NCBI GenBank assembly: GCA_043818335.1
Contig: JBDRFV010000019.1
Location: 1-41,460, forward strand
Direction of reading: 5' to 3'
Source: Patescibacteria group bacterium
Lineage (GTDB): Bacteria; Patescibacteriota; Minisyncoccia; Phycocordibacterales; UBA9973
DNA length: 41,460 bases
This document shows positions 3,580 to 21,808 of the stretch, piece by piece. How positions within the stretch are numbered: position 1 is the first letter of the stretch; every line of letters begins with the position of its first letter. The position numbers were made by a program, and so were the translations under genes. The notes under the pieces are model-generated. The model was not told the origin of the DNA. It made no database searches and saw nothing but the letters and a program-made list of their open reading frames with translations.

Positions 3580-5769
<2,190 letters not shown>

Positions 5770-7724: not shown

Positions 7725-8648
7725 ATGGAAAAGAATAAAGGATTTATAGGAATTGGTTTGATAATAGCGATAATCGTTGGTGTTTTGGTAGTCGGTGGTG
7801 GAGCGTATTATATTGGAACAAAAAATGATATTGTTCCTGAAAATATAAATATGGAAGAAAATAATCTTCCGCAAGATAATGTTGTAGATAAAAACACTAT
7901 AACTAACCAACAGACAAAAGACGAACAAGCATCTGTTCCAGAAAAAACAACAGGTCCTAGTTCACCTTGCGCTTCAACAGCTCAACCTTCAATTACGATT
8001 CTTTCTCCAAATGGAGGAGAAACTTATACAGCTGGTCAACAAATTACAATAAAGTGGACAAGTTGCAATCTTCCTTCCACAACACCAGTTGATATTTTAT
8101 TACAGGCTCAATTTTCTTCAGGACCATGGTTCGGCCCTTCTGGTTTGGCAACTTATGGATTACAGTCAACTCATACATTAAATTCTGGATCAACAACAAT
8201 TACTCTTCCAATACAAGGTTCTGGGCAATGGTATGGAAGTGCTACGGATATGACTTATGGCACATATTATAAAATATGGATTTCAGAAGGTACTATAATA
8301 CAAGGTCCTGGTATTAGCGATGTTTCTGATAATTTATTTACAATTCAAACACAAAAAAATCCAATTCTTACTCAAACTCAAGCAGAAAATCTTGTTCTAT
8401 TAAATTGGGGTGGTTGCACCCTAGATACTTGTGGGTCCGTTGTTGTAACAGTTCAACAAAATACTGAAGGACAATATGTTGTGACTGCAATTTACAAAGA
8501 ACTTCGAGATGATTCTATAGGATCACAAAAAAAAGAAGCAATTGTTTTATATCAAAATGGAGTTTGGGTGCTTGGACAACCAACTTTAACATGGGCATGT
8601 CAGTTAAATCGCGGGCATCAAGATTTTAGTACAGTTTTTTGTATTTAA
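7725..8648 (+). CDS. membrane-anchored or secreted surface protein with an SPNGGE...IxW Ig-like module
   Basis: 307 aa with an N-terminal hydrophobic anchor. The conserved block TGPSSPCASTAQPSITILSPNGGETYTAGQQITIKWTSCN is shared with the next gene. Confidence 0.7.
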   Translation: MEKNKGFIGIGLIIAIIVGVLVVGGGAYYIGTKNDIVPENINMEENNLPQDNVVDKNTITNQQTKDEQASVPEKTTGPSSPCASTAQPSITILSPNGGETYTAGQQITIKWTSCNLPSTTPVDILLQAQFSSGPWFGPSGLATYGLQSTHTLNSGSTTITLPIQGSGQWYGSATDMTYGTYYKIWISEGTIIQGPGISDVSDNLFTIQTQKNPILTQTQAENLVLLNWGGCTLDTCGSVVVTVQQNTEGQYVVTAIYKELRDDSIGSQKKEAIVLYQNGVWVLGQPTLTWACQLNRGHQDFSTVFCI

Positions 8649-8676: not shown

Positions 8677-9630
8677 ATGAAAAATAACAAAGGTTTTGGA
8701 ATGATAGCAGTATTAATAATAGTTGTTGCATTATTAGCATCAGGTGGAGTTGTGTATTATCTTAATAAAGATTTAAATAAAACTCCTGTAAATTTAGAAG
8801 ATGAAAATGTTTTGTTAGAAGAACAGGAACAGCAAAATGATTCAGAAGAAGTTTCTATTTTAGACGAATCAACTGGACCTAGTTCGCCTTGTGCGTCAAC
8901 GGCTGCGCCTTCAATAACTGTTTTGTCTCCAAATGGGGGAGAAACTTATACTGCGGGACAGCAAATTACAATAAAGTGGACAAGTTGTAACGGTGCTTCA
9001 AATTCTCAAGTAATGATTTCTCTTAAATCATCACAATCAGCTGGAAGTGAGATGGCAACTGTATCTGATTCCGGAATGGCTACTATTACTTTACCAACAG
9101 CATTGTATAGTGGAACAATTCCATTGGTGTCAGGAAAATATTATAAAATTGTTGCTCAATTAGGTGGAAGTGCAATGGGCCACATAGCTCCAACTGACGA
9201 ATCTGATAATTTATTTACAATAAATTCAAATTTGGCAGATGAAGATTGTTCTACATGGTTATCTTTTAATGATTTTGGAAATATTAAATATCCAAGTTGC
9301 TGGATAGCAAGTAATACAAAAGGAGGCAGTTATGGTACTTCCAACTTAACTGTTGGTATGTTATTAAAACCATCAGTAAATAGTCCAACAAGTGACAGTA
9401 TTAGTATTGGAGGATGGCAATACGGTTGTGAAAATGTAAATGTTTCTAGTGGAATGAGTCCAGCAACAAAAGCTTACTGCATACAATCAGAAGGAGGAAA
9501 TATTCCATGGACTGGTCAATATATAACTTCTATAAATCAGAACACTATTTACGGTATTCCAATGGTTACTCATTCAACAAATTCACAAGTGTTGAATATG
9601 TTTGATCAAATAGTTCAACATAATATTTAA
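8677..9630 (+). CDS. paralogous membrane-anchored or secreted surface protein
   Basis: 317 aa with the same N-terminal anchor type and the same 40-aa block (38/40 identical). The rest is divergent. Confidence 0.7.
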   Translation: MKNNKGFGMIAVLIIVVALLASGGVVYYLNKDLNKTPVNLEDENVLLEEQEQQNDSEEVSILDESTGPSSPCASTAAPSITVLSPNGGETYTAGQQITIKWTSCNGASNSQVMISLKSSQSAGSEMATVSDSGMATITLPTALYSGTIPLVSGKYYKIVAQLGGSAMGHIAPTDESDNLFTINSNLADEDCSTWLSFNDFGNIKYPSCWIASNTKGGSYGTSNLTVGMLLKPSVNSPTSDSISIGGWQYGCENVNVSSGMSPATKAYCIQSEGGNIPWTGQYITSINQNTIYGIPMVTHSTNSQVLNMFDQIVQHNI

Positions 9631-11766: not shown

Positions 11767-12264
11767 ATGAATAAAGATAAAAATAATGTTGCTTATATAG
11801 ACGGAGCGAATTTACATAAAGGTATAGAAAGTTTAGATTGGGAATTTGACTACGGACGTTTCAGAATTTGGCTTAAAGAAAAATTTGGCGTTAAGCAAAC
11901 GTATTTATTTTTAGGATTAATTCCTAAATATAAAGATCTTTACACAAAATTACAAAATCAAGGTTATATTCTTGTTTTTAAGGAAGTTATTTTTGATGGT
12001 GAGGGAAAAGCAAAAGGGAATTGTGATGCAGATATTGTGGTTCACGCTATGCAGAATGCTTATGAAAATAATTTTAATAAAGCAATTTTAGTTTCGAGCG
12101 ATGGCGACTATGCTCCTCTGGTAAAATTTTTGAAAGAAAAAGACAAAATAAATTTTATCTTATCTCCCTATGAAACAAAAAAATGTTCGGTTTTATTAAA
12201 AAGAACAGGAGTAAAAATATCTTATATTGCTGAGCAAAAAAATATTCTTAAAAAAATTAGATGA
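11767..12264 (+). CDS. NYN/LabA-like (PIN-related) domain protein
   Basis: Motifs AYIDGANL, CDADIVV and SSDGDYAPLVKFL. It starts 1 nt after the rnc stop. Confidence 0.75.
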   Translation: MNKDKNNVAYIDGANLHKGIESLDWEFDYGRFRIWLKEKFGVKQTYLFLGLIPKYKDLYTKLQNQGYILVFKEVIFDGEGKAKGNCDADIVVHAMQNAYENNFNKAILVSSDGDYAPLVKFLKEKDKINFILSPYETKKCSVLLKRTGVKISYIAEQKNILKKIR

Positions 12265-12412: not shown

Positions 12413-13501
12413 ATGAAAACGTCTTTTAATTTCGAAAAACATAGAAAAGATATTTTAGATAAATTCAAAAAAACTGCAATTGAAAAGGGTTCTTTTGTTG
12501 CTAAGGAAGAATTAAAAAAAGAACAGGAAGATATTAAATACAAAATATCAAAAGATTTAGAATTAACCGAAAGACAAATAAAAAAGGAATATAAAGCACC
12601 ATCTGAAGGATTTGAAAAGAAAATTATTTCAATTGGGAAACAAGATATTACTCAAGAAGTAGATAAATGTTTAAGTTTAAAATATCCCGAAGAAGTTGGT
12701 AAACATGATTTTACACTTGAAACTTTTGATATATCAGACAGGATTCCTGAATCTTTAAAATTATATATTGATACGGAAAGAATGGATGCAGTTGAGTCAA
12801 AAAGTTTTCCTGCTACCTTTGCTTTTCAACGAGGATTAAAACAAATGTTGATAGATGATTTAAAAAAATATGGGGATGGTTGGATTAAAAACGATGATAA
12901 AGAAAATAATTTAGTCAAAACATTAACATATCTACTTGTTAATAAATTAACCGAAGGAGAATTTTCAAACGAAAATAATATTAATCATGTTGTTTTTGGA
13001 GCTTTTGATAGTGAGCCTGTTGGTCCACAAACACCTAGCCGAAAAAAATTTGAAGATGAAAGAGAAAAAAGGCTTTATTGGAGAGATTTAAAAGAAAGAG
13101 ATACAGTTTATGGAATTGGATTTGATCCAAACAGTACAATATTGGGCGAGATACCATTTTCTGATTGTGTAAGCATAGATCGTTACAAAGCAGGAGAACG
13201 TCATAGAGCCGGACATTATCTTTCTTCTCCGTCAAAACCAATAATAATTGTTAATCCACTACAAAAGAGATTTCTTTCTTTGGTTGCAATGGATGAAAAT
13301 TCATTTAAAAATAAAATACAAAAAGAAAAAACAAAAACTGACATGGGAATATATTTTGGATGGAATTATGATGGAATGAATGAATATAAAAACAAAAAAG
13401 GCTTGAGTGGAAGATTTGGTTTAAAGTGGACTGATCTCGCAGACTGGATTGTGGATTTACCAAGTGGAAAATTATATAAAATAACAGAAAAAGAAAAATA
13501 A
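12413..13501 (+). CDS. hypothetical protein (orphan), ending 3 nt before smc
   Basis: 362-aa ORF with normal coding composition. No family recognised. Confidence 0.6.
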   Translation: MKTSFNFEKHRKDILDKFKKTAIEKGSFVAKEELKKEQEDIKYKISKDLELTERQIKKEYKAPSEGFEKKIISIGKQDITQEVDKCLSLKYPEEVGKHDFTLETFDISDRIPESLKLYIDTERMDAVESKSFPATFAFQRGLKQMLIDDLKKYGDGWIKNDDKENNLVKTLTYLLVNKLTEGEFSNENNINHVVFGAFDSEPVGPQTPSRKKFEDEREKRLYWRDLKERDTVYGIGFDPNSTILGEIPFSDCVSIDRYKAGERHRAGHYLSSPSKPIIIVNPLQKRFLSLVAMDENSFKNKIQKEKTKTDMGIYFGWNYDGMNEYKNKKGLSGRFGLKWTDLADWIVDLPSGKLYKITEKEK

Positions 13502-13504
13502 TTT

Positions 13505-15805
13505 ATGCGACTTAAGAATCTTGAAATTAACGGTTTTAAATCTTTTGCTAAAAAAACTAACTTGGAATTTCAAAGTCCAATTGTTTGTGTTGTTGGACCA
13601 AATGGATCTGGAAAATCAAATGTAGTTGAAGCTGTAAGATTTGTTCTTGGTGAGCAGTCCATGAAATCAATGCGTGGAAAAGCTGGGGCCGATCTTATTT
13701 TTAAAGGTTCTAAATCTTTTTCAAAAAGTTCTCGCGCTTCTGTAATTATTTATTTAGATAATAAAGATAAAATTTTTAAGCTGTCTAATGAAATGGGAGA
13801 AAATATTAATTTGAATTTTGATACTATTTCTATTTCTCGTGAAGTTTATTCTGACGGGATAAATAAATACATGCTAAATGGCACGGAAGTTAGATTAAAA
13901 GATATAAATAATTTATTAGCTTCTGTGAGTATTGGTTCCTCTGGACATCATATCATTTCTCAAGGAGAATCAGATAGAATTTTAAATGCTTCACCAAAAG
14001 AGAGAAGGGAAATGATTGAAGATGCTTTGGGTCTTAAAATATATCAATACAAAATAAAAGATGCAGATAGGAAACTAGTTAAAACTAGTGAAAATATGCG
14101 GGAAGTTTCTTTATTAAGAAGAGAGATTTTGCCACACTTAAATTTTCTAAAAAAGCAGGTTGAAAAATTTGAAAAAGCTAAAGAAATGAAAATAGATTTA
14201 ACTAATCTATATCATGAATATTTAAATAAAGAGGATACTTATTTACAAAGTGAGCAGAAAAACTTACATGCAGAAAAAAGCAAAATTTCAAGTGAGTTAA
14301 ACAGCATTTCTAATTTAATTTCTGATAAAGATGATGATCAAAAAATAGAAAAAGAAAGTAAGCATAAAAAAGAATTAGAAAATTTAGAACAAAAAGTTTC
14401 TCAAATTCGTATTGCAAAAAGTGAAATAGAAAGAAAACTTGGAAGAATAGAAGGGATGATTGAGTTAGAAGAAAACAGAAAACCAGCTAATCAGGAAGTT
14501 CAAAAAGCTAAAAGTTCAAATGTATCAATAAATAAAGAAGAATTAGAATCTTTTTTGAAAGAAGCCCATGAATATTTAGAAGAAGCCATGTATATTGATG
14601 TTTTAGAGAATATCGCGCCTCTTTTGGGTAAGATAAAAGATATTTTAGATAGATTTGCTAGAAATTTTGAATACAGAAGTCAGCCTCAAGATAACTATAA
14701 TAATACAGTTTCCAGTGTTAATTTAGATGAATTAAAAAATACACAAGAAGCGATTTTAGTTCAAATGAAAGAGATAGAACAAGAAGAAAAAAAGATTTCT
14801 GAAACTATGCAAATTTTAAAAGATAAAATATCAGAAGAGTTAGAATTAGATCGAGATAAAGAAAGAGAAAAGTTTAATCTAAAAGTAAAACATCAGGAAT
14901 TATCTTCTGCTTTACAAATAATTTTAGTAAAAGAAGAAAATATAACAAAAGAAAAAGATTATTTTGAGAATGAAATAAAAGAGGGAAGCATTTTAGCTGG
15001 TTCTGAGATTTTAGGTTACAAGAATTTTGAAATAGTAGGTTTATTTGATAGAAGTTCTCAAGAAATTTTAAAGAAAAAAATAGAAAGAATTAAAATAAGA
15101 TTAGAAGATGCTGGTTTGGGTGGTGGAAGTGAAGTTGTGAAAGAATTTCAAGAAATTTCTGATAGAGAAAAGTTTCTTACTAAAGAAATGGAAGACTTAT
15201 CTGCAAGCGTAGAATCTCTTAAGAAATTAATGGCAGATTTGAAGAGCAAGATAGATTCTGAATTTAAAGAGGGCATAGAAAAGATTAATATAGAATTTAA
15301 AGAATTTTTCTCGCTTATGTTTAATGGCGGGACTGGTTCTTTGAAAATAGTTTCTGAAGTTAAAAGAAAGAAAATTATAGAAATAGAAGATGAAGAAGAA
15401 CAATCTGAAACAGAATTAGAATTAGAAATAGATGAAGATGAAGTTCCAGAGCAGGGAATTGAAATTAATGTTTCTTTGCCACATAAAAAAGTTAAAGAAC
15501 TAAACGCACTTTCTGGTGGAGAAAGATCTTTAACTTCTATTGCGCTTCTTTTTGCGATGTCTCAAGTAAATCCACCGCCATTTTTAGTGCTAGACGAAAC
15601 TGATGCTGCTCTTGATGAAGCTAATTCTAGAAAATATGGTGATATGCTAGAAAAACTTTCTAAACATTCTCAACTTGTTGTTGTAACTCATAATAGGGAA
15701 ACTATGTCTCGTGCTGATGTTTTGTATGGTGTTACTGTTGGTTCTGACGGTGCTTCTAAGCTTTTGTCTGTAAAGTTTGATGAAGCTACGGCTATTGCGA
15801 AATAA
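13505..15805 (+). CDS. smc: SMC-family chromosome condensation ATPase, shortened (766 aa)
   Basis: The N-terminal head is RLKNLEINGFKSF..GPNGSGKSNVVEAVRFVLGEQSMKSMRG. The C-terminal head is LSGGERSLTSIALLFA..PPFLVLDETDAALDEAN..VVTHNRETM..VLYGVTV. Only about 375 aa lie between the head and the joint, and no canonical Gly-rich hinge is visible. Confidence 0.85.
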   Translation: MRLKNLEINGFKSFAKKTNLEFQSPIVCVVGPNGSGKSNVVEAVRFVLGEQSMKSMRGKAGADLIFKGSKSFSKSSRASVIIYLDNKDKIFKLSNEMGENINLNFDTISISREVYSDGINKYMLNGTEVRLKDINNLLASVSIGSSGHHIISQGESDRILNASPKERREMIEDALGLKIYQYKIKDADRKLVKTSENMREVSLLRREILPHLNFLKKQVEKFEKAKEMKIDLTNLYHEYLNKEDTYLQSEQKNLHAEKSKISSELNSISNLISDKDDDQKIEKESKHKKELENLEQKVSQIRIAKSEIERKLGRIEGMIELEENRKPANQEVQKAKSSNVSINKEELESFLKEAHEYLEEAMYIDVLENIAPLLGKIKDILDRFARNFEYRSQPQDNYNNTVSSVNLDELKNTQEAILVQMKEIEQEEKKISETMQILKDKISEELELDRDKEREKFNLKVKHQELSSALQIILVKEENITKEKDYFENEIKEGSILAGSEILGYKNFEIVGLFDRSSQEILKKKIERIKIRLEDAGLGGGSEVVKEFQEISDREKFLTKEMEDLSASVESLKKLMADLKSKIDSEFKEGIEKINIEFKEFFSLMFNGGTGSLKIVSEVKRKKIIEIEDEEEQSETELELEIDEDEVPEQGIEINVSLPHKKVKELNALSGGERSLTSIALLFAMSQVNPPPFLVLDETDAALDEANSRKYGDMLEKLSKHSQLVVVTHNRETMSRADVLYGVTVGSDGASKLLSVKFDEATAIAK

Positions 15806-15810
15806 TTTTT

Positions 15811-15900
15811 TCTCCTCCTTTTTGAGGAGGAGTGCCCGAAGGGCGAGGTGGTGATTTTAATTACCACCCCCAACCCCCTCCCTTGTTAAGGGGGAGGGGA
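15811..15900 (+). repeat. GC-rich multi-hairpin repeat, copy 1
   Basis: It contains four hairpin modules: CTCCTCC-TTTTT-GAGGAGGAG, GCCC-GAA-GGGC, GGTGGTGATTTTAATTACCACC and CCCCTCCC-TTGTTAA-GGGGGAGGGG. Blocks of 27 nt and 44 nt are identical to copy 2. Confidence 0.9.
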
Positions 15901-15947
15901 ATAAAAATCACTTATTTCTCAAGTGATTGAACCGTTACTTTTTACTA

Positions 15948-15976
15948 TTGACTTTTTAGCTCAAATTATATATTAT
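15948..15976 (+). promoter_or_regulatory. putative sigma-70 promoter
   Basis: TTGACT-17 nt-TATTAT lies upstream of the ORF at 16049. Confidence 0.4.
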
Positions 15977-16048
15977 AAAAACAAGAAAATTCACTCGAGT
16001 ATAAATTAGAAAGAGTGGATAAAATCTGCTCTTTTAAAATTCTAAAAA

Positions 16049-16285
16049 ATGAGAACAGTGATAATATTTTGGATTGGTTTATCGGTTTTTTTAACCGGAT
16101 TTTTTGGTGGAGTTTTTAGTTTTGTCTTGAGCACGGAGAGTTTAAACTCCACGTTACGGTTATGCATTTTATCTACAGGTCTAAGTGCAAGGGATATTTT
16201 TCTTGTCTCACTTTCAGTCCTAGTTTTGGGATTCTTATTTATCATCATAGCATTCTATAAAATGTTATGTAAAAATGATATGTAA
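16049..16285 (+). CDS. small hydrophobic membrane protein (hypothetical)
   Basis: 78 aa with 2-3 hydrophobic helices. It has a promoter-like motif upstream and a strong terminator 27 nt downstream. Confidence 0.45.
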   Translation: MRTVIIFWIGLSVFLTGFFGGVFSFVLSTESLNSTLRLCILSTGLSARDIFLVSLSVLVLGFLFIIIAFYKMLCKNDM

Positions 16286-16311
16286 ACATGTTATACATAG
16301 GTTAATTTATT

Positions 16312-16342
16312 CCGTTGCGGCTTTCGTTGCAACGGTTTTTTT
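16312..16342 (+). terminator. rho-independent terminator
   Basis: CCGTTGC-GGCTTTCGTT-GCAACGG is followed by T7. Confidence 0.75.
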
Positions 16343-16356
16343 ATTACATTTTTATC

Positions 16357-16453
16357 TCTCCTCCTTTTTGAGGAGGAGTGCCCTGAGCTTTGCGAAGGGC
16401 GAGGTGGTGATTTTAATTACCACCCCCAACCCCCTCCTTGAAAAGGAGGGGAG
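16357..16453 (+). repeat. GC-rich multi-hairpin repeat, copy 2
   Basis: It has the same modules as copy 1 in the same orientation. It carries a 10-nt indel (TGAGCTTTGC, 16384-16393) and a different terminal loop. Confidence 0.9.
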
Positions 16454-16476
16454 TAAAATGCAATAACCCCCTAAAT

Positions 16477-16522
16477 CCCCCTTGTCAGGGGGACTTTTAT
16501 TTTTTCCTCCCCTGACAAGGGG
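16477..16522. repeat. GC-rich inverted repeat
   Basis: The 14-nt CCCCTTGTCAGGGG within CCCCCTTGTCAGGGGG (16477-16492) is the exact reverse complement of CCCCTGACAAGGGG (16509-16522). It is related to the terminal module of copy 1. Confidence 0.75.
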
Positions 16523-16577
16523 AGGTTAGGAGGGGTTTGATTTTATAAACAGCCCTTATTTTCCAAGCTATTTAAGC

Positions 16578-16606
16578 TTGACTTTTCTATTTATACATGC
16601 TATACT
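16578..16606 (+). promoter_or_regulatory. putative sigma-70 promoter
   Basis: TTGACT-17 nt-TATACT lies about 130 nt upstream of the ORF at 16736. Confidence 0.5.
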
Positions 16607-16658
16607 ATGCAGGTATTTAGTACGTTAAAAAACCCGTATTTTTTAGTTTTAATAAATA

Positions 16659-16708
16659 GTGAATTGTCTTAAGTTATTAATTAATTTTGATGATTTGGGA
16701 CAATTCAC
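16659..16708 (+). promoter_or_regulatory. 10-bp perfect inverted repeat in the 5' leader of ORF 16736
   Basis: GTGAATTGTC and GACAATTCAC are separated by 30 nt. Confidence 0.4.
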
Positions 16709-18969: not shown

Positions 18970-20952
18970 CTAAATTAAAATATAATCTATAGTTTTTCTT
19001 TCTAAATCAACGTCTTTAACTTTTATTTTTACTGTGTCTCCTATTTTATATCTTTTTTTATTTTTCTGTCCTACTAGTTCAAACTTTTTCTCATCAAAAC
19101 TATAAAAGTCATCTTTTAGATTTCTAAGCTGTATTAAACCTTCACATTTTGTTTCTTTTTCTTCTACATATATTCCCCATTTTGTAACACCACTTATTAT
19201 TCCATCAAAATTTTGACCAATTCTTTCTGACATATACTCTACCTGCTTGTATTTTATAGAAGCTCGTTCTGCGTCTGATGCTTTTTTTTCTTGTTCAGAA
19301 GATTTTTGTGAAATTTTTTGGTAGCTTTCTAATTTATCTTTTGTAATTTTTTTACCGGATAAATAATCTTGCAAAAATCTATGCACTACTATGTCTGGAT
19401 ATCTTCTAATGGGTGAAGTAAAATGTGTGTAATATGCAAAAGCTAAACCGTAATGTCCGATATTTTCAGTAGAATAAATTGCTTTTGCCATGGATCTAAT
19501 TACAGCTTTGCTGATAGTTTCTTGTTCGTTTTTACCTTTTAATTTTTCTAAAAGTTTATTTAATTCTTTTGGTGGGATTACACCGTTTTTCATTGGCAAA
19601 TTATGCCCCATGCCTTTTAGAAATAAAGTTAAATCATGCATTTTTTCTTTACTTGGCAAGTCGTGAACTCTGTATACAAAAATTCCTTCTTCTTGGCCCT
19701 TTTTTGTACCTTTTGAAATAAGTTCAGCTACTTTCTTATTAGCTAAAAGCATGAATTCTTCTATTAATCTATTAGAATCACCTCTGATTTTTTTTATAAC
19801 TTTAATCGGCTTTCCATCTTTATCTAAAACAAATTTTACCTCTTCTTGATCCAAAGACATTGCACCGTGCTCAAATCTTTCTTCTGTTAATTTTTTAGCT
19901 AGATTATTTAAAATAGCTAGTTCCTTGTGATAAGCTAACTTGTTATTTTTGATAGCATCTTCAGCTTCTTGATAAGTAAAACGTTTTGCTGAGTGTATTA
20001 CAGTTTTTCCAAACCATTCTGATTTTATTTTTGCATTTTTATCTAAAACAAAAACCGCGCTCATTGTTAGTCTGTCTTTATTTGGAACTAAAGAACACAA
20101 GTCATTAGAAAGTACTTCTGGAAGCATTGGAATTGTTCTGTCTACTAAATAAACAGAAGTCGTTCGCCCTTTTGCTTCTTTGTCTAATTCACTGCCAGGT
20201 TTTACATAATTAGAAACATCAGCAATATGTATGCCTATTTCATATTCACCACCCCCAACCCCCTCCTTAGAAGAGGAGGGGAGTTTTCGAAATGAAATAG
20301 CATCATCGAAATCTTTTGCGTCTTCTGGGTCAATAGTGAAAGTTAAGGTTTTTCTAAAATCTTTTCTATTTTTATAATCTTCTGAACTTATACCGTTTTC
20401 TTTTATAATTTTTGCTTCTTTTTCTGCAGATTCAGATAAGGAATTGTCGAAACCTTTTTCAAGTGCAATAGCGTGCATTTCGGTTTCATTTTCTCCAGGA
20501 TTTCCAATTATTTTTTTTACTTCCCCGATTGGATTTCCTTGACTGTCTTTCCAAGAAATTATTTTCACAAAAACTTTCTGTCCAATTTCTGCATTATTTA
20601 ATTTATTTGGATCAATAAAAATATCAGCATACATTTTTATGTCATCTGGAACTAAAAATATATTTTTTTCTATTTTTTTTAAAACCCCAACAAAGCCATT
20701 TTTTGCTCGGGAAATTATATTCACAACTTTTCCAATTTCGCGACCACGTTTTTTGGAAAGCAATTCTATTTTTACTAAATCGCCATTTAATGCAGTATTA
20801 AGATGATTAGAATCAATTTCTATATCTATTTCTTTATTTTCTAAAGTTACATAGCCCATTCCTTTGCTATTTACAGAAATAACCCCTTCGAGTTTTTGCC
20901 TGCTGTTTTTGTTGGTTTTGTTTTTATTATTAGTTTTTTTCTTTTTTGCCAT
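18970..20952 (-). CDS. rnr: ribonuclease R
   Basis: It has the RNB core (DPEDAKDFDDAISF, HIADVSNYV, YLVDRTIPMLPE, HYGLAFAYYTHFTSPIRRYPD), a C-terminal S1 domain and a Lys-rich N-terminus. Confidence 0.9.
   Translation of the reverse strand: MAKKKKTNNKNKTNKNSRQKLEGVISVNSKGMGYVTLENKEIDIEIDSNHLNTALNGDLVKIELLSKKRGREIGKVVNIISRAKNGFVGVLKKIEKNIFLVPDDIKMYADIFIDPNKLNNAEIGQKVFVKIISWKDSQGNPIGEVKKIIGNPGENETEMHAIALEKGFDNSLSESAEKEAKIIKENGISSEDYKNRKDFRKTLTFTIDPEDAKDFDDAISFRKLPSSSKEGVGGGEYEIGIHIADVSNYVKPGSELDKEAKGRTTSVYLVDRTIPMLPEVLSNDLCSLVPNKDRLTMSAVFVLDKNAKIKSEWFGKTVIHSAKRFTYQEAEDAIKNNKLAYHKELAILNNLAKKLTEERFEHGAMSLDQEEVKFVLDKDGKPIKVIKKIRGDSNRLIEEFMLLANKKVAELISKGTKKGQEEGIFVYRVHDLPSKEKMHDLTLFLKGMGHNLPMKNGVIPPKELNKLLEKLKGKNEQETISKAVIRSMAKAIYSTENIGHYGLAFAYYTHFTSPIRRYPDIVVHRFLQDYLSGKKITKDKLESYQKISQKSSEQEKKASDAERASIKYKQVEYMSERIGQNFDGIISGVTKWGIYVEEKETKCEGLIQLRNLKDDFYSFDEKKFELVGQKNKKRYKIGDTVKIKVKDVDLERKTIDYILI
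20247..20283. repeat. copy of the intergenic repeat's terminal module, in frame inside rnr
   Basis: CACCACCCCCAACCCCCTCCTTAGAAGAGGAGGGGAG compares with ACCACCCCCAACCCCCTCCTTGAAAAGGAGGGGAG at 16419-16453. On the minus strand it encodes ..PSSSKEGVGGGE... Confidence 0.85.
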
Positions 20953-21734: not shown

Positions 21735-21749
21735 ATTAAAGAATTTTAA

Positions 21750-21776
21750 CCCTCGGGCATAGCCCACGGGCGAGCC
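21750..21776. repeat. GC-rich element (CCCTCGG...ACGGGCNAG family)
   Basis: CCCTCGGGCATAGCCCACGGGCGAGCC aligns at about 20/27 with the trmD-internal element at 23020. Confidence 0.65.
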
Positions 21777-21782
21777 AAAAAG

Positions 21783-21808
21783 ACTCAGACTTGTTCTGGG
21801 TTTTTTTG
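21783..21808 (+). terminator. rho-independent terminator
   Basis: ACTCAGA-CTTGT-TCTGGGT (one G-U pair) is followed by T7. Confidence 0.75.

Follow-up and report, generated by a model that had tools for sequence, protein, structure and literature searches.

We analysed a 41,460-nt stretch of the forward strand of contig JBDRFV010000019.1, from a Patescibacteria group bacterium (hereafter the window), for a cluster of GC-rich hairpin repeats that lies directly downstream of smc. The window as a whole has a guanine-cytosine (GC) content of 30.6%, and the repeats exceed 60%. Two copies of an element of about 100 nt, which we call Type A, are present in direct orientation at 15806-15902 and 16352-16458, 546-556 nt apart, and are followed by a hairpin module of a second family. 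The space between the copies holds a promoter-like site, an open reading frame (ORF) of 78 codons (ORF78), and a terminator-like hairpin. The original prediction for this locus, made from the letters alone, described nested hairpin repeats that bracket a tiny membrane-protein gene; we find that the repeats belong to a dispersed family, and argue that the locus is probably a pile-up of non-autonomous, selfish palindromic DNA. The features concerned are listed here, with H1 to H4 denoting the successive hairpins of a Type A copy, and REPIN a doublet of repetitive extragenic palindromes (REPs).

15806..16549, no strand: lineage-specific insertion block of 744 bp at the smc 3' junction, holding everything through the doublet
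15806..15902, + strand: Type A copy 1 (nhmmer profile match 15805-15902, E = 1e-27), with H1 15812-15832, H2 15833-15845, H3 15847-15868, linker CCCAA, H4 15875-15899
15948..15976, + strand: promoter-like TTGACT-17-TATTAT, 10/12 matches, weak
16049..16285, + strand: ORF78, a hydrophobic orphan of 78 aa and probably no native gene
16312..16345, + strand: intrinsic-terminator-like hairpin of 10 pairs (16312-16335), then T7
16352..16458, + strand: Type A copy 2 (nhmmer E = 3e-29), sister of copy 1, with H1 16358-16378, H2 with a 10-nt loop insert 16379-16402, H3 16403-16424, H4 16430-16453
16468..16535, no strand: inverted REPIN-like doublet, the second mini-hairpin module: CCCCCTAAAT-CCCCCTTGTCAGGGGG, spacer, CCTCCCCTGACAAGGGGAGG-TTAGGAGGGG
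16550..16610, + strand: conserved block with the hairpin and promoter of the small downstream gene, outside the insertion and marking its right edge
20242..20286, + strand: Type A fragment (3' arm of H3, linker CCCAA, H4; nhmmer E = 1e-7)

The two full copies share a block of 32 nt at 94% identity (15806-15837 and 16352-16383), with 27 nt identical from 15811 and 16357, plus a 45-nt block at 100% identity (15837-15881 and 16393-16437), and the H2 loop of copy 2 has an extra 10 nt, TGAGCTTTGC, relative to copy 1. When folded, each copy forms four consecutive hairpins, with energies of -52.5 and -59.2 kcal/mol (z = -5.6 and -8.2), and none of 200 shuffled sequences was as stable. Repeat searching and folding thus confirmed the predicted pair of direct four-hairpin copies, their shared blocks and the 10-nt indel. 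The further inverted repeat placed at 16477-16522 is also real, and longer than had been claimed (16468-16535), and the two ORFs that cross the repeats (15688-15873, minus strand, and 16275-16466), suspected of being spurious, are indeed so, with codon scores of -0.15 and -0.33. The window contains 29 GC-rich perfect hairpins, compared with 0-3 in shuffled sequence, concentrated at 15812-16525 and 20260-20281, and the chance expectation of the motif searches was 0 matches. No run of T follows the Type A hairpins on either strand, as would be expected of intrinsic terminators; a T-run after a hairpin is found only at 16312-16345 and, weakly, at 16476-16493. Among 42 unique Type A copies, those in the window are each other's closest relatives, and only they carry the H3 loop variant GATTTTAATTACC. 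The module of the second family and its doublet recur in other retrieved loci (L138, L123, L125, L102, L197). In copy 2, the Shine-Dalgarno (SD)-like 3' arm of H4 gives way at 16454-16466 to a mini-ORF of two codons, ATG CAA TAA, located where a DUF559 gene has its start codon in related loci.

To place the block, we compared the junction with that of relatives. The nearest homologues of the RNase R encoded in the window are from Candidatus Nomurabacteria/Paceibacterota, within the Patescibacteria or candidate phyla radiation (CPR), and in contigs of the closest relatives the gene order is RNase III, smc, small ORF, peptidase/PGA_cap, RNase R, S16, KH. In two of these contigs, L186 and L188, whose RNase R is 85% and 78% identical to that of the window, a single nucleotide separates the smc stop codon TAA from the conserved block cttattttccaagctatttaagcttgactttt, which corresponds to the window from 16550 onward. 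The synteny check proposed in the original prediction therefore found the whole block missing from both relatives, and on this ground we regard 15806-16549 as a lineage-specific insertion. Two other relatives carry different insertions at the same junction, namely a GC-rich hairpin with a DUF559 gene in L184 and a 524-aa secreted-protein gene with Por_Secre_tail in L185. Since two relatives are empty and two hold other DNA, the smc 3' junction is a recurrent insertion site. The block at 16550-16610, which includes TTGACT-17-TATACT with TG, is kept in all four. A search with the Type A profile found no match in L184-L186, L188 and L189 (∼80 kb in all). The locus had been proposed as a source or a hotspot of the element family; the hotspot part agrees with the empty and alternatively filled junctions, and the source part does not stand, as the family reaches well beyond this locus in both age and breadth. 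RNase III adjoins smc directly in L184, L186, L188 and L189. In the window, two ORFs (11767-12264 and 12413-13501, the second without a Pfam match) lie directly upstream of smc (13505), and look like a second lineage-specific insertion beside this gene.

The Type A family between and inside genes

To delimit the family, metagenome contigs were scanned for exact matches to a strict Type A pattern, GAGGAGGAGTGCCC-N(3-25)-GGGCGAGGTGGTG. The scan returned 63 stretches (L121-L183) which, taken together with locus L010 and the window, give 62 distinct occurrences, 42 of the copies being unique and full. The repeats therefore represent a real element family, as had been proposed. Most contigs with Type A have a GC content of 31-45%, and higher values are seen in L129 (51%) and in L158 and L162 (58-60%). 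In a metagenome-assembled genome of Paceibacterota, metG and tatD are separated by a near-identical copy. The consensus reads (aatttct)CTCCTCC-loop-GGAGGAG, TGCCC-loop-GGGCGA, GGTGGTGATT-loop-AAT(T/C)ACCACC, CCCAA, CCCCCTCCT-loop-AGGAGGGGAG, with AATTTCTCYCCTCCTT and AAGGAGGGGAGAAATT as its ends. The loops are variable and the stems invariant, an invariance that is partly forced by the retrieval pattern, which itself fixes part of the stems.

Type A elements resemble MITEs, the miniature transposable elements with inverted repeats, in their length (∼95-105 nt, within the limit of about 300 bp set for small non-coding MITEs) and in being dispersed and multicopy. H1 and H4 have arms of 25-26 nt that are 80-81% complementary; each hairpin is an imperfect inverted copy of the other, so that the pair acts like the terminal inverted repeats of MITEs. 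In both hairpins, an anti-SD-like arm (CTCCTCC or CCCTCCTT) pairs with an SD-like one (GGAGGAG or AAGGAGG). The modules also occur in shuffled and nested form: in a permuted version, Type B, the order is CACCACC-CCCAA-H4-H1-H2-GGTGGTG, and in some copies (L144, L153) other mini-hairpins are nested in the H3 loop. Intergenic copies are found in either orientation relative to their neighbours, and many copies start 2-9 nt past a stop codon.

A large part of the family lies inside genes. Of the 62 occurrences, 27 are within ORFs of at least 150 aa, and all 27 are on the strand opposite to the pattern and in frame with the host. An insertion of Type A adds about 30 aa to the protein, for example PLLxEEGVGGGxSKNHHLALKGTPPQKGGE, and where the H2 loop is one base shorter the insert reads ...EGVGGGNSLITTSPFGHSSSxRRR. 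Hosts identified with Pfam among the fetched loci were TGT (four times), TsaD (three times), MnmA (twice), PolA, TopA, GluRS, AtpD, LigA, Fpg, MurB, PGM, UvrB and others. Read from the sequence, every forward frame of the variant with a TTTA loop is interrupted by a stop codon (TGA, TAA, TAG), which explains why only antisense copies are found in genes; in the variant with a GAA loop, one forward frame can remain open. The in-gene copies are most simply read as being translated into an extra loop of ∼30 aa.

One such insertion, which the original prediction had overlooked, is in the window itself. The fragment at 20242-20286 lies antisense and in frame in the RNase R gene (ORF 18970-20952, minus strand), where it encodes LPSSSKEGVGGG between the motifs DDAISFxxL and YEIGIHIADVS. 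The insert is lacking from the ten nearest homologues of this RNase R (70-86% identity), an example of the empty target site being GAATTAGATAATTC. At the same site, six homologues among those listed carry a full insert of ∼32 aa, and others carry different fragments, so that this one position is patchily occupied. In an AlphaFold model of an RNase R with the full insert, the insert is a coil with a predicted local distance difference test (pLDDT) score below 50, placed between two beta strands. Insertions at orthologous positions in Tgt are 80-94% identical, compared with 70-86% for the coding flanks, and are thus about 10 points more conserved.

A long ORF for a secreted protein in a Nomurabacteria contig (L102) apparently contains, at 1845-1935, H4 and a module of the second family (...TPITTPNPLLNQGGGEPSPLNSSSLDKGRLGGV...), in which case translation is not limited to Type A modules. 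The GyrB ORF of the window (3688-5769) has a stretch at 5467-5540 that reaches 70% GC, compared with 31% for the genome, and encodes a linker of 22 aa between the Toprim and C-terminal domains, which may be an in-frame insertion of a different family. Elsewhere in the window, a GC-rich piece at 21747-21792, CCCTCGGGCATAGCCCACGGGCGAGCC, follows the KH-domain gene and has no Rfam match; the T-run after it may mark a terminator. A direct repeat of 155 nt with 79% identity (7923-8077 and 8845-8999) is shared by two neighbouring ORFs (7725-8648 and 8677-9630), probably tandem paralogues.

DUF559 genes and the shared 18-mer

Genes next to intergenic copies were examined for a candidate mobilising enzyme. 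The commonest family, with 5 of 55 neighbour ORFs assigned by Pfam, was DUF559 (PF04480). The 25 most frequent families of these neighbours included no transposase and no REP-associated tyrosine transposase (RAYT, a Y1 transposase) of the kind that accompanies REPINs, and hence no sign of a parent autonomous insertion sequence with a transposase, as is expected for MITEs. A DUF559 gene lies within 100 nt of an element in nine loci (L122, L136, L150, L168, L171, L174 and L176, and L065 and L092 from the 18-mer set described below). Its start is 5-15 nt past H4 in five of them (L122, L136, L150, L168, L174), it sits between H4 and H1 in two (L171, L176), and the element variants that bear a gene carry DUF559 only. 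The CPR DUF559 protein matches PF04480 with E = 2e-31 and the structure 3hrl in the PDB with E = 1e-19. DUF559 and Vsr have been placed in one PD-(D/E)XK group with a characterised EDxHD homing endonuclease (PMC3424549, PMC3384342, PMC9403480).

The linkage extends beyond Type A. All three copies in the window contain the 18-mer CCACCCCCAACCCCCTCC, which recurs in at least 120 genome loci spread over many phyla, mostly with a matching GGAGGGGG arm after it. We estimate that ∼17 matches would arise by chance in the 596 Gb at uniform base composition; since at least 120 were found, most with the matching arm, a chance low-complexity match is unlikely, and convergence among C-rich hairpin families may lie behind the spread across phyla. 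The 18-mer with its closing GGAGGGGG was seen in Nostocales (nested in MITE-like hairpins), Sphingomonadales, Cytophagales/Spirosoma (as doublets), Chloroflexota, Planctomycetota and Clostridia. DUF559 is present in ten of the genome loci, most of which have inverted hairpin modules on either side of the gene; these come from Sphingomonadales, Nostoc, Bacteroidota and Ignavibacteriales. Inverted doublets are also found in L045, L060, L063 and L084. The 18-mer occurs in 27 viral contigs (L190-L216) as well, where the hairpins are terminator-like and none of the 27 has DUF559. In phage and sphingomonad copies, a T-run often follows the 18-mer hairpin, as in a terminator.

The association also held in reverse, starting from DUF559 homologues picked regardless of repeats. 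Among 120 of these, 21 had N- or C-termini that appear to be encoded by an element, for example NSSPPCGGGVPEGRGGD and PKGRGGDLLNLELPPPTPSLKRRG. In both of the unselected loci for which DNA was available, L217 (by gyrA) and L218 (by metG), hairpin modules abut DUF559, and in two further loci the gap of ∼116 nt between metG and DUF559 fits an element of that length. Elements are found repeatedly at the metG 3' junction, with Type A alone and then tatD in L010, and Type A with DUF559 in L122/L168 and L136/L150; at the same junction, L218 has other hairpin modules with DUF559. CPR DUF559 genes are often on contigs of 0.5-2 kb, as expected if a repeated element breaks assemblies. Literature searches returned nothing on palindromic elements of CPR bacteria, nor on GC-rich hairpin repeats linked to DUF559. 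Because the genes are embedded in hairpins in CPR genomes and in other phyla, we infer that DUF559 is a candidate mobiliser.

Interpretation and alternatives

We consider it likely that Type A is non-autonomous, GC-rich palindromic selfish DNA, which has piled up at a hotspot after smc. The pile-up would consist of two sister Type A copies, a doublet of the second family and, separating the copies, an AT-rich stretch of ∼450 bp, foreign or junk, in which the orphan ORF lies. According to this proposal, the family is dispersed in genomes of Paceibacteria/Nomurabacteria, where intergenic copies would survive in either orientation, and copies inside genes only in the orientation that lacks stop codons. 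The modules would be copied as DNA, by nick- or break-induced repair or by a transposition-like step, for which a Vsr-like, EDxHD-type DUF559 endonuclease would supply the nuclease in trans. Copies 1 and 2 could have arisen through local re-insertion or through recombination between elements.

Several observations weigh against this proposal. No target-site duplication could be defined at RNase R or at the smc junction, where the filled and empty pairs are too diverged or composite. The copy number is low, with three copies in the 41-kb window and none in the ∼80 kb of relatives, and the Type A pattern had no match in the viral contigs of IMG/VR, which leaves the spread without a vector. Part of the stem invariance reflects how the copies were retrieved, and the conservation of the Tgt inserts above their flanks could indicate a selected function instead of selfishness. 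A search of 15700-16700 for a DUF559 remnant, made with every filter off, came back empty, and the window contains no DUF559 gene. In several genomes DUF559 lies stably downstream of metG, and could be a resident gene or a homing gene that targets the hairpins. Mobility itself is an inference, as are the mode of copying and the part played by DUF559; the family membership, the empty sites in relatives, the in-frame insertions, the patchy occupation of a single site, the shuffling and nesting of modules and the linkage to DUF559 genes are shown.

It is possible, if in our judgement doubtful, that DUF559 does not mobilise the elements at all. It might be a free-standing homing gene that targets existing hairpins, or a resident repair gene with hairpins in its untranslated regions (UTRs), and the hairpins might spread by replication slippage or template switching, by host recombination, or by a transposase still to be found. 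Consistent with this, the gene is present in only ∼8% of loci with the 18-mer and ∼13% of those with Type A, is missing from the viral loci and from the window, and keeps its place after metG, with a gap of ∼115 nt, in several genomes. Such a resident or homing gene accounts less readily for the flanking of DUF559 on both sides by inverted modules in several phyla, for DUF559 ORFs that run into the modules, and for the fact that no other mobility gene is enriched next to the elements.

The region between the copies raises a different possibility, that the small membrane-protein gene and the flanking direct copies form a mobile cassette, comparable to a composite transposon or to a circle integrated by a Campbell-type event. 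A cassette would fit the absence of the entire 744-bp block from L186 and L188, the mutual closeness of the two copies, the framing of ORF78 by a promoter-like site and a strong terminator, and the element-gene-element layout around DUF559 in related loci. The GC content at third codon positions (GC3), 0.32 in ORF78 compared with 0.17, would also suit a foreign origin. However, ORF78 had no homologue among 1.84 billion representative proteins, apart from a single weak and spurious match to a repetitive protein, and belongs to no Pfam family. Its codon score of -0.135 is in the range of spurious ORFs (-0.19), compared with 0.51 ± 0.17 for native genes. Lacking homologues and native codon usage, ORF78 is probably not a native gene, and the tiny membrane-protein gene of the original prediction is not borne out. 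Neither ORF78 nor the SMC protein of the window had an exact-protein record. Searches of the ∼450-bp middle segment with blastn and tblastx against the window and ∼200 fetched loci found no similarity, so that no second instance of the unit is known among them and the suggested search for ORF78 beside the same repeats elsewhere came back empty. The self-contained transcription unit that had been described survives in part: the 78-aa ORF and the strong terminator are present, and so is the promoter-like site, but its match is not above chance, as the AT-rich window has nine such sites compared with 5.9 ± 3.3 expected from shuffles. We therefore think a cassette improbable, and the middle segment is either junk or recently acquired foreign DNA.

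A structured RNA or cis-regulatory unit is, in our estimate, a shade less probable again. The hairpins could form a DUF559 5' UTR with a ribosome-binding-site switch, REP-like 3' hairpins that stabilise mRNA, or a small RNA, and several properties would suit such a role: the very stable fold, the SD/anti-SD-like arms of H1 and H4, of which the 3' one of H4 precedes the DUF559 ATG by 5-15 nt, the G-U pair that 30 of 40 copies have in H3 when read on this strand, the many copies that begin shortly after a stop codon, and the better conservation of the stems relative to coding flanks. Against it, Rfam at the gathering threshold reported only tRNA in the window, all sub-threshold matches look like chance (the best in 15700-16700 scores 28.6 bits, compared with a threshold of 55), and E-value mode gave nothing for the element either. 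RNAalifold found compensatory changes in 0 of 30 pairs across 40 copies, a test of limited power here given the partly fixed stems. The intergenic copies occur in both orientations, 44% of copies are antisense in unrelated ORFs, and no T-run follows the hairpins. With 27 coding copies in antisense, orientations that are mixed and no covariation, an RNA role is unlikely, and the structured-RNA locus suggested earlier is not supported.

That the repeats are only a local duplication, tandem or segmental, and belong to no larger family would suit the spacing of the sister copies, but is refuted by the third copy 3.8 kb away in RNase R and by the strict-pattern matches in other genomes, and we give it practically no credence.

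If selfish DNA is indeed the correct reading of Type A, then CPR genomes, which are usually called streamlined, carry it in core genes (RNase R, PolA, TopA, UvrB, Tgt, TsaD, AtpD). Gene calling would be affected, through spurious ORFs and extended termini, as would protein-family alignments and phylogenomic markers. A broader proposal is that DUF559 nucleases mobilise or maintain a pan-bacterial class of GC-rich mini-hairpins, in a second partnership like that of REPIN and RAYT, and that loops of ∼30 aa are routinely written into essential CPR proteins; we offer this tentatively, and regard it as less likely than not. The class would comprise CPR Type A, the doublets of sphingomonads and Cytophagales, and the Nostoc modules resembling small dispersed repeats (SDR) with CCACCCCCAA-CCCCCTCC...GGAGGGGG. 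If the reading of Type A as selfish DNA holds, DUF559, a very large family, would gain a concrete and testable role, and the spread of mini-hairpin repeats a candidate enzyme.

Comparison with known systems

The H4 module with its CCACCCCCAA leader is found verbatim in many Nostocales loci, nested in MITE-like hairpins. The cyanobacterial SDR described by Elhai and colleagues in 2008 are reportedly GC-rich modules of ∼20-40 nt nested in the loops of other hairpins, and that description is not known to include the CPR Type A composite or its in-frame insertions. The likeness is one of size, composition and nesting. With the EDxHD/Vsr-like homing endonucleases such as I-Bth0305I, the likeness lies in the grouping of DUF559 with Vsr and a group I intron homing enzyme; those enzymes are found in introns, in inteins or free-standing in phage, whereas the DUF559 genes of CPR bacteria, which encode putative endonucleases, are linked to GC-rich hairpins.

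We know of no mobilising enzyme established for the Rickettsia palindromic elements (RPEs). Type A resembles them as a palindrome of roughly 100-150 nt in a reduced, AT-rich genome, with intergenic copies and frequent in-frame insertions in housekeeping genes, and like them it encodes a conserved peptide in frame, in 27 host ORFs and at the RNase R site. RPEs are palindromic repeats found in frame in unrelated housekeeping ORFs, where the peptide is tolerated by the fold (PMC10969869). Type A differs in being from Patescibacteria/CPR, shorter, far more GC-rich than its host, built from shuffling modules and linked to DUF559, and is therefore an analogue and not a member, likened by behaviour and not by sequence. 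If our reading is correct, it would be a second independent case of the RPE phenomenon and, unlike in RPEs, gain and loss can be traced, because empty, filled and fragment states are found at one site.

In the GC clusters of yeast mitochondria, loops diverge fastest, clusters merge and shuffle, recombination hotspots are formed, and insertions are found in frame in var1 (PMC8811140). These too are GC-rich palindromes in an AT-rich genome, mostly intergenic, and the variable loops, A/B permutations and nesting of Type A match them. The differences are an organelle compared with a bacterial chromosome, other sequences, and the absence of terminal AG/TAG duplications in the Type A copies seen here. 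The in-gene clusters of Magnusiomyces are bypassed by the ribosome, whereas the frame of in-gene Type A copies is always open.

REPs and REPINs are likewise short hairpins rich in GC, present alone or paired in inverted doublets comparable to the one at 16468-16535. In the REPIN-RAYT system a single-copy nuclease gene is flanked by repeats (PMC3116915), and that gene is a tyrosine transposase of the IS200/IS605 type, in place of which we find a DUF559 nuclease of the PD-(D/E)XK/Vsr-like kind; REPs are extragenic by definition, whereas Type A colonises ORFs. On the best-supported reading, Type A comes closest to RPEs and yeast GC clusters in behaviour, and to REPIN-RAYT in organisation, with DUF559 replacing the transposase.

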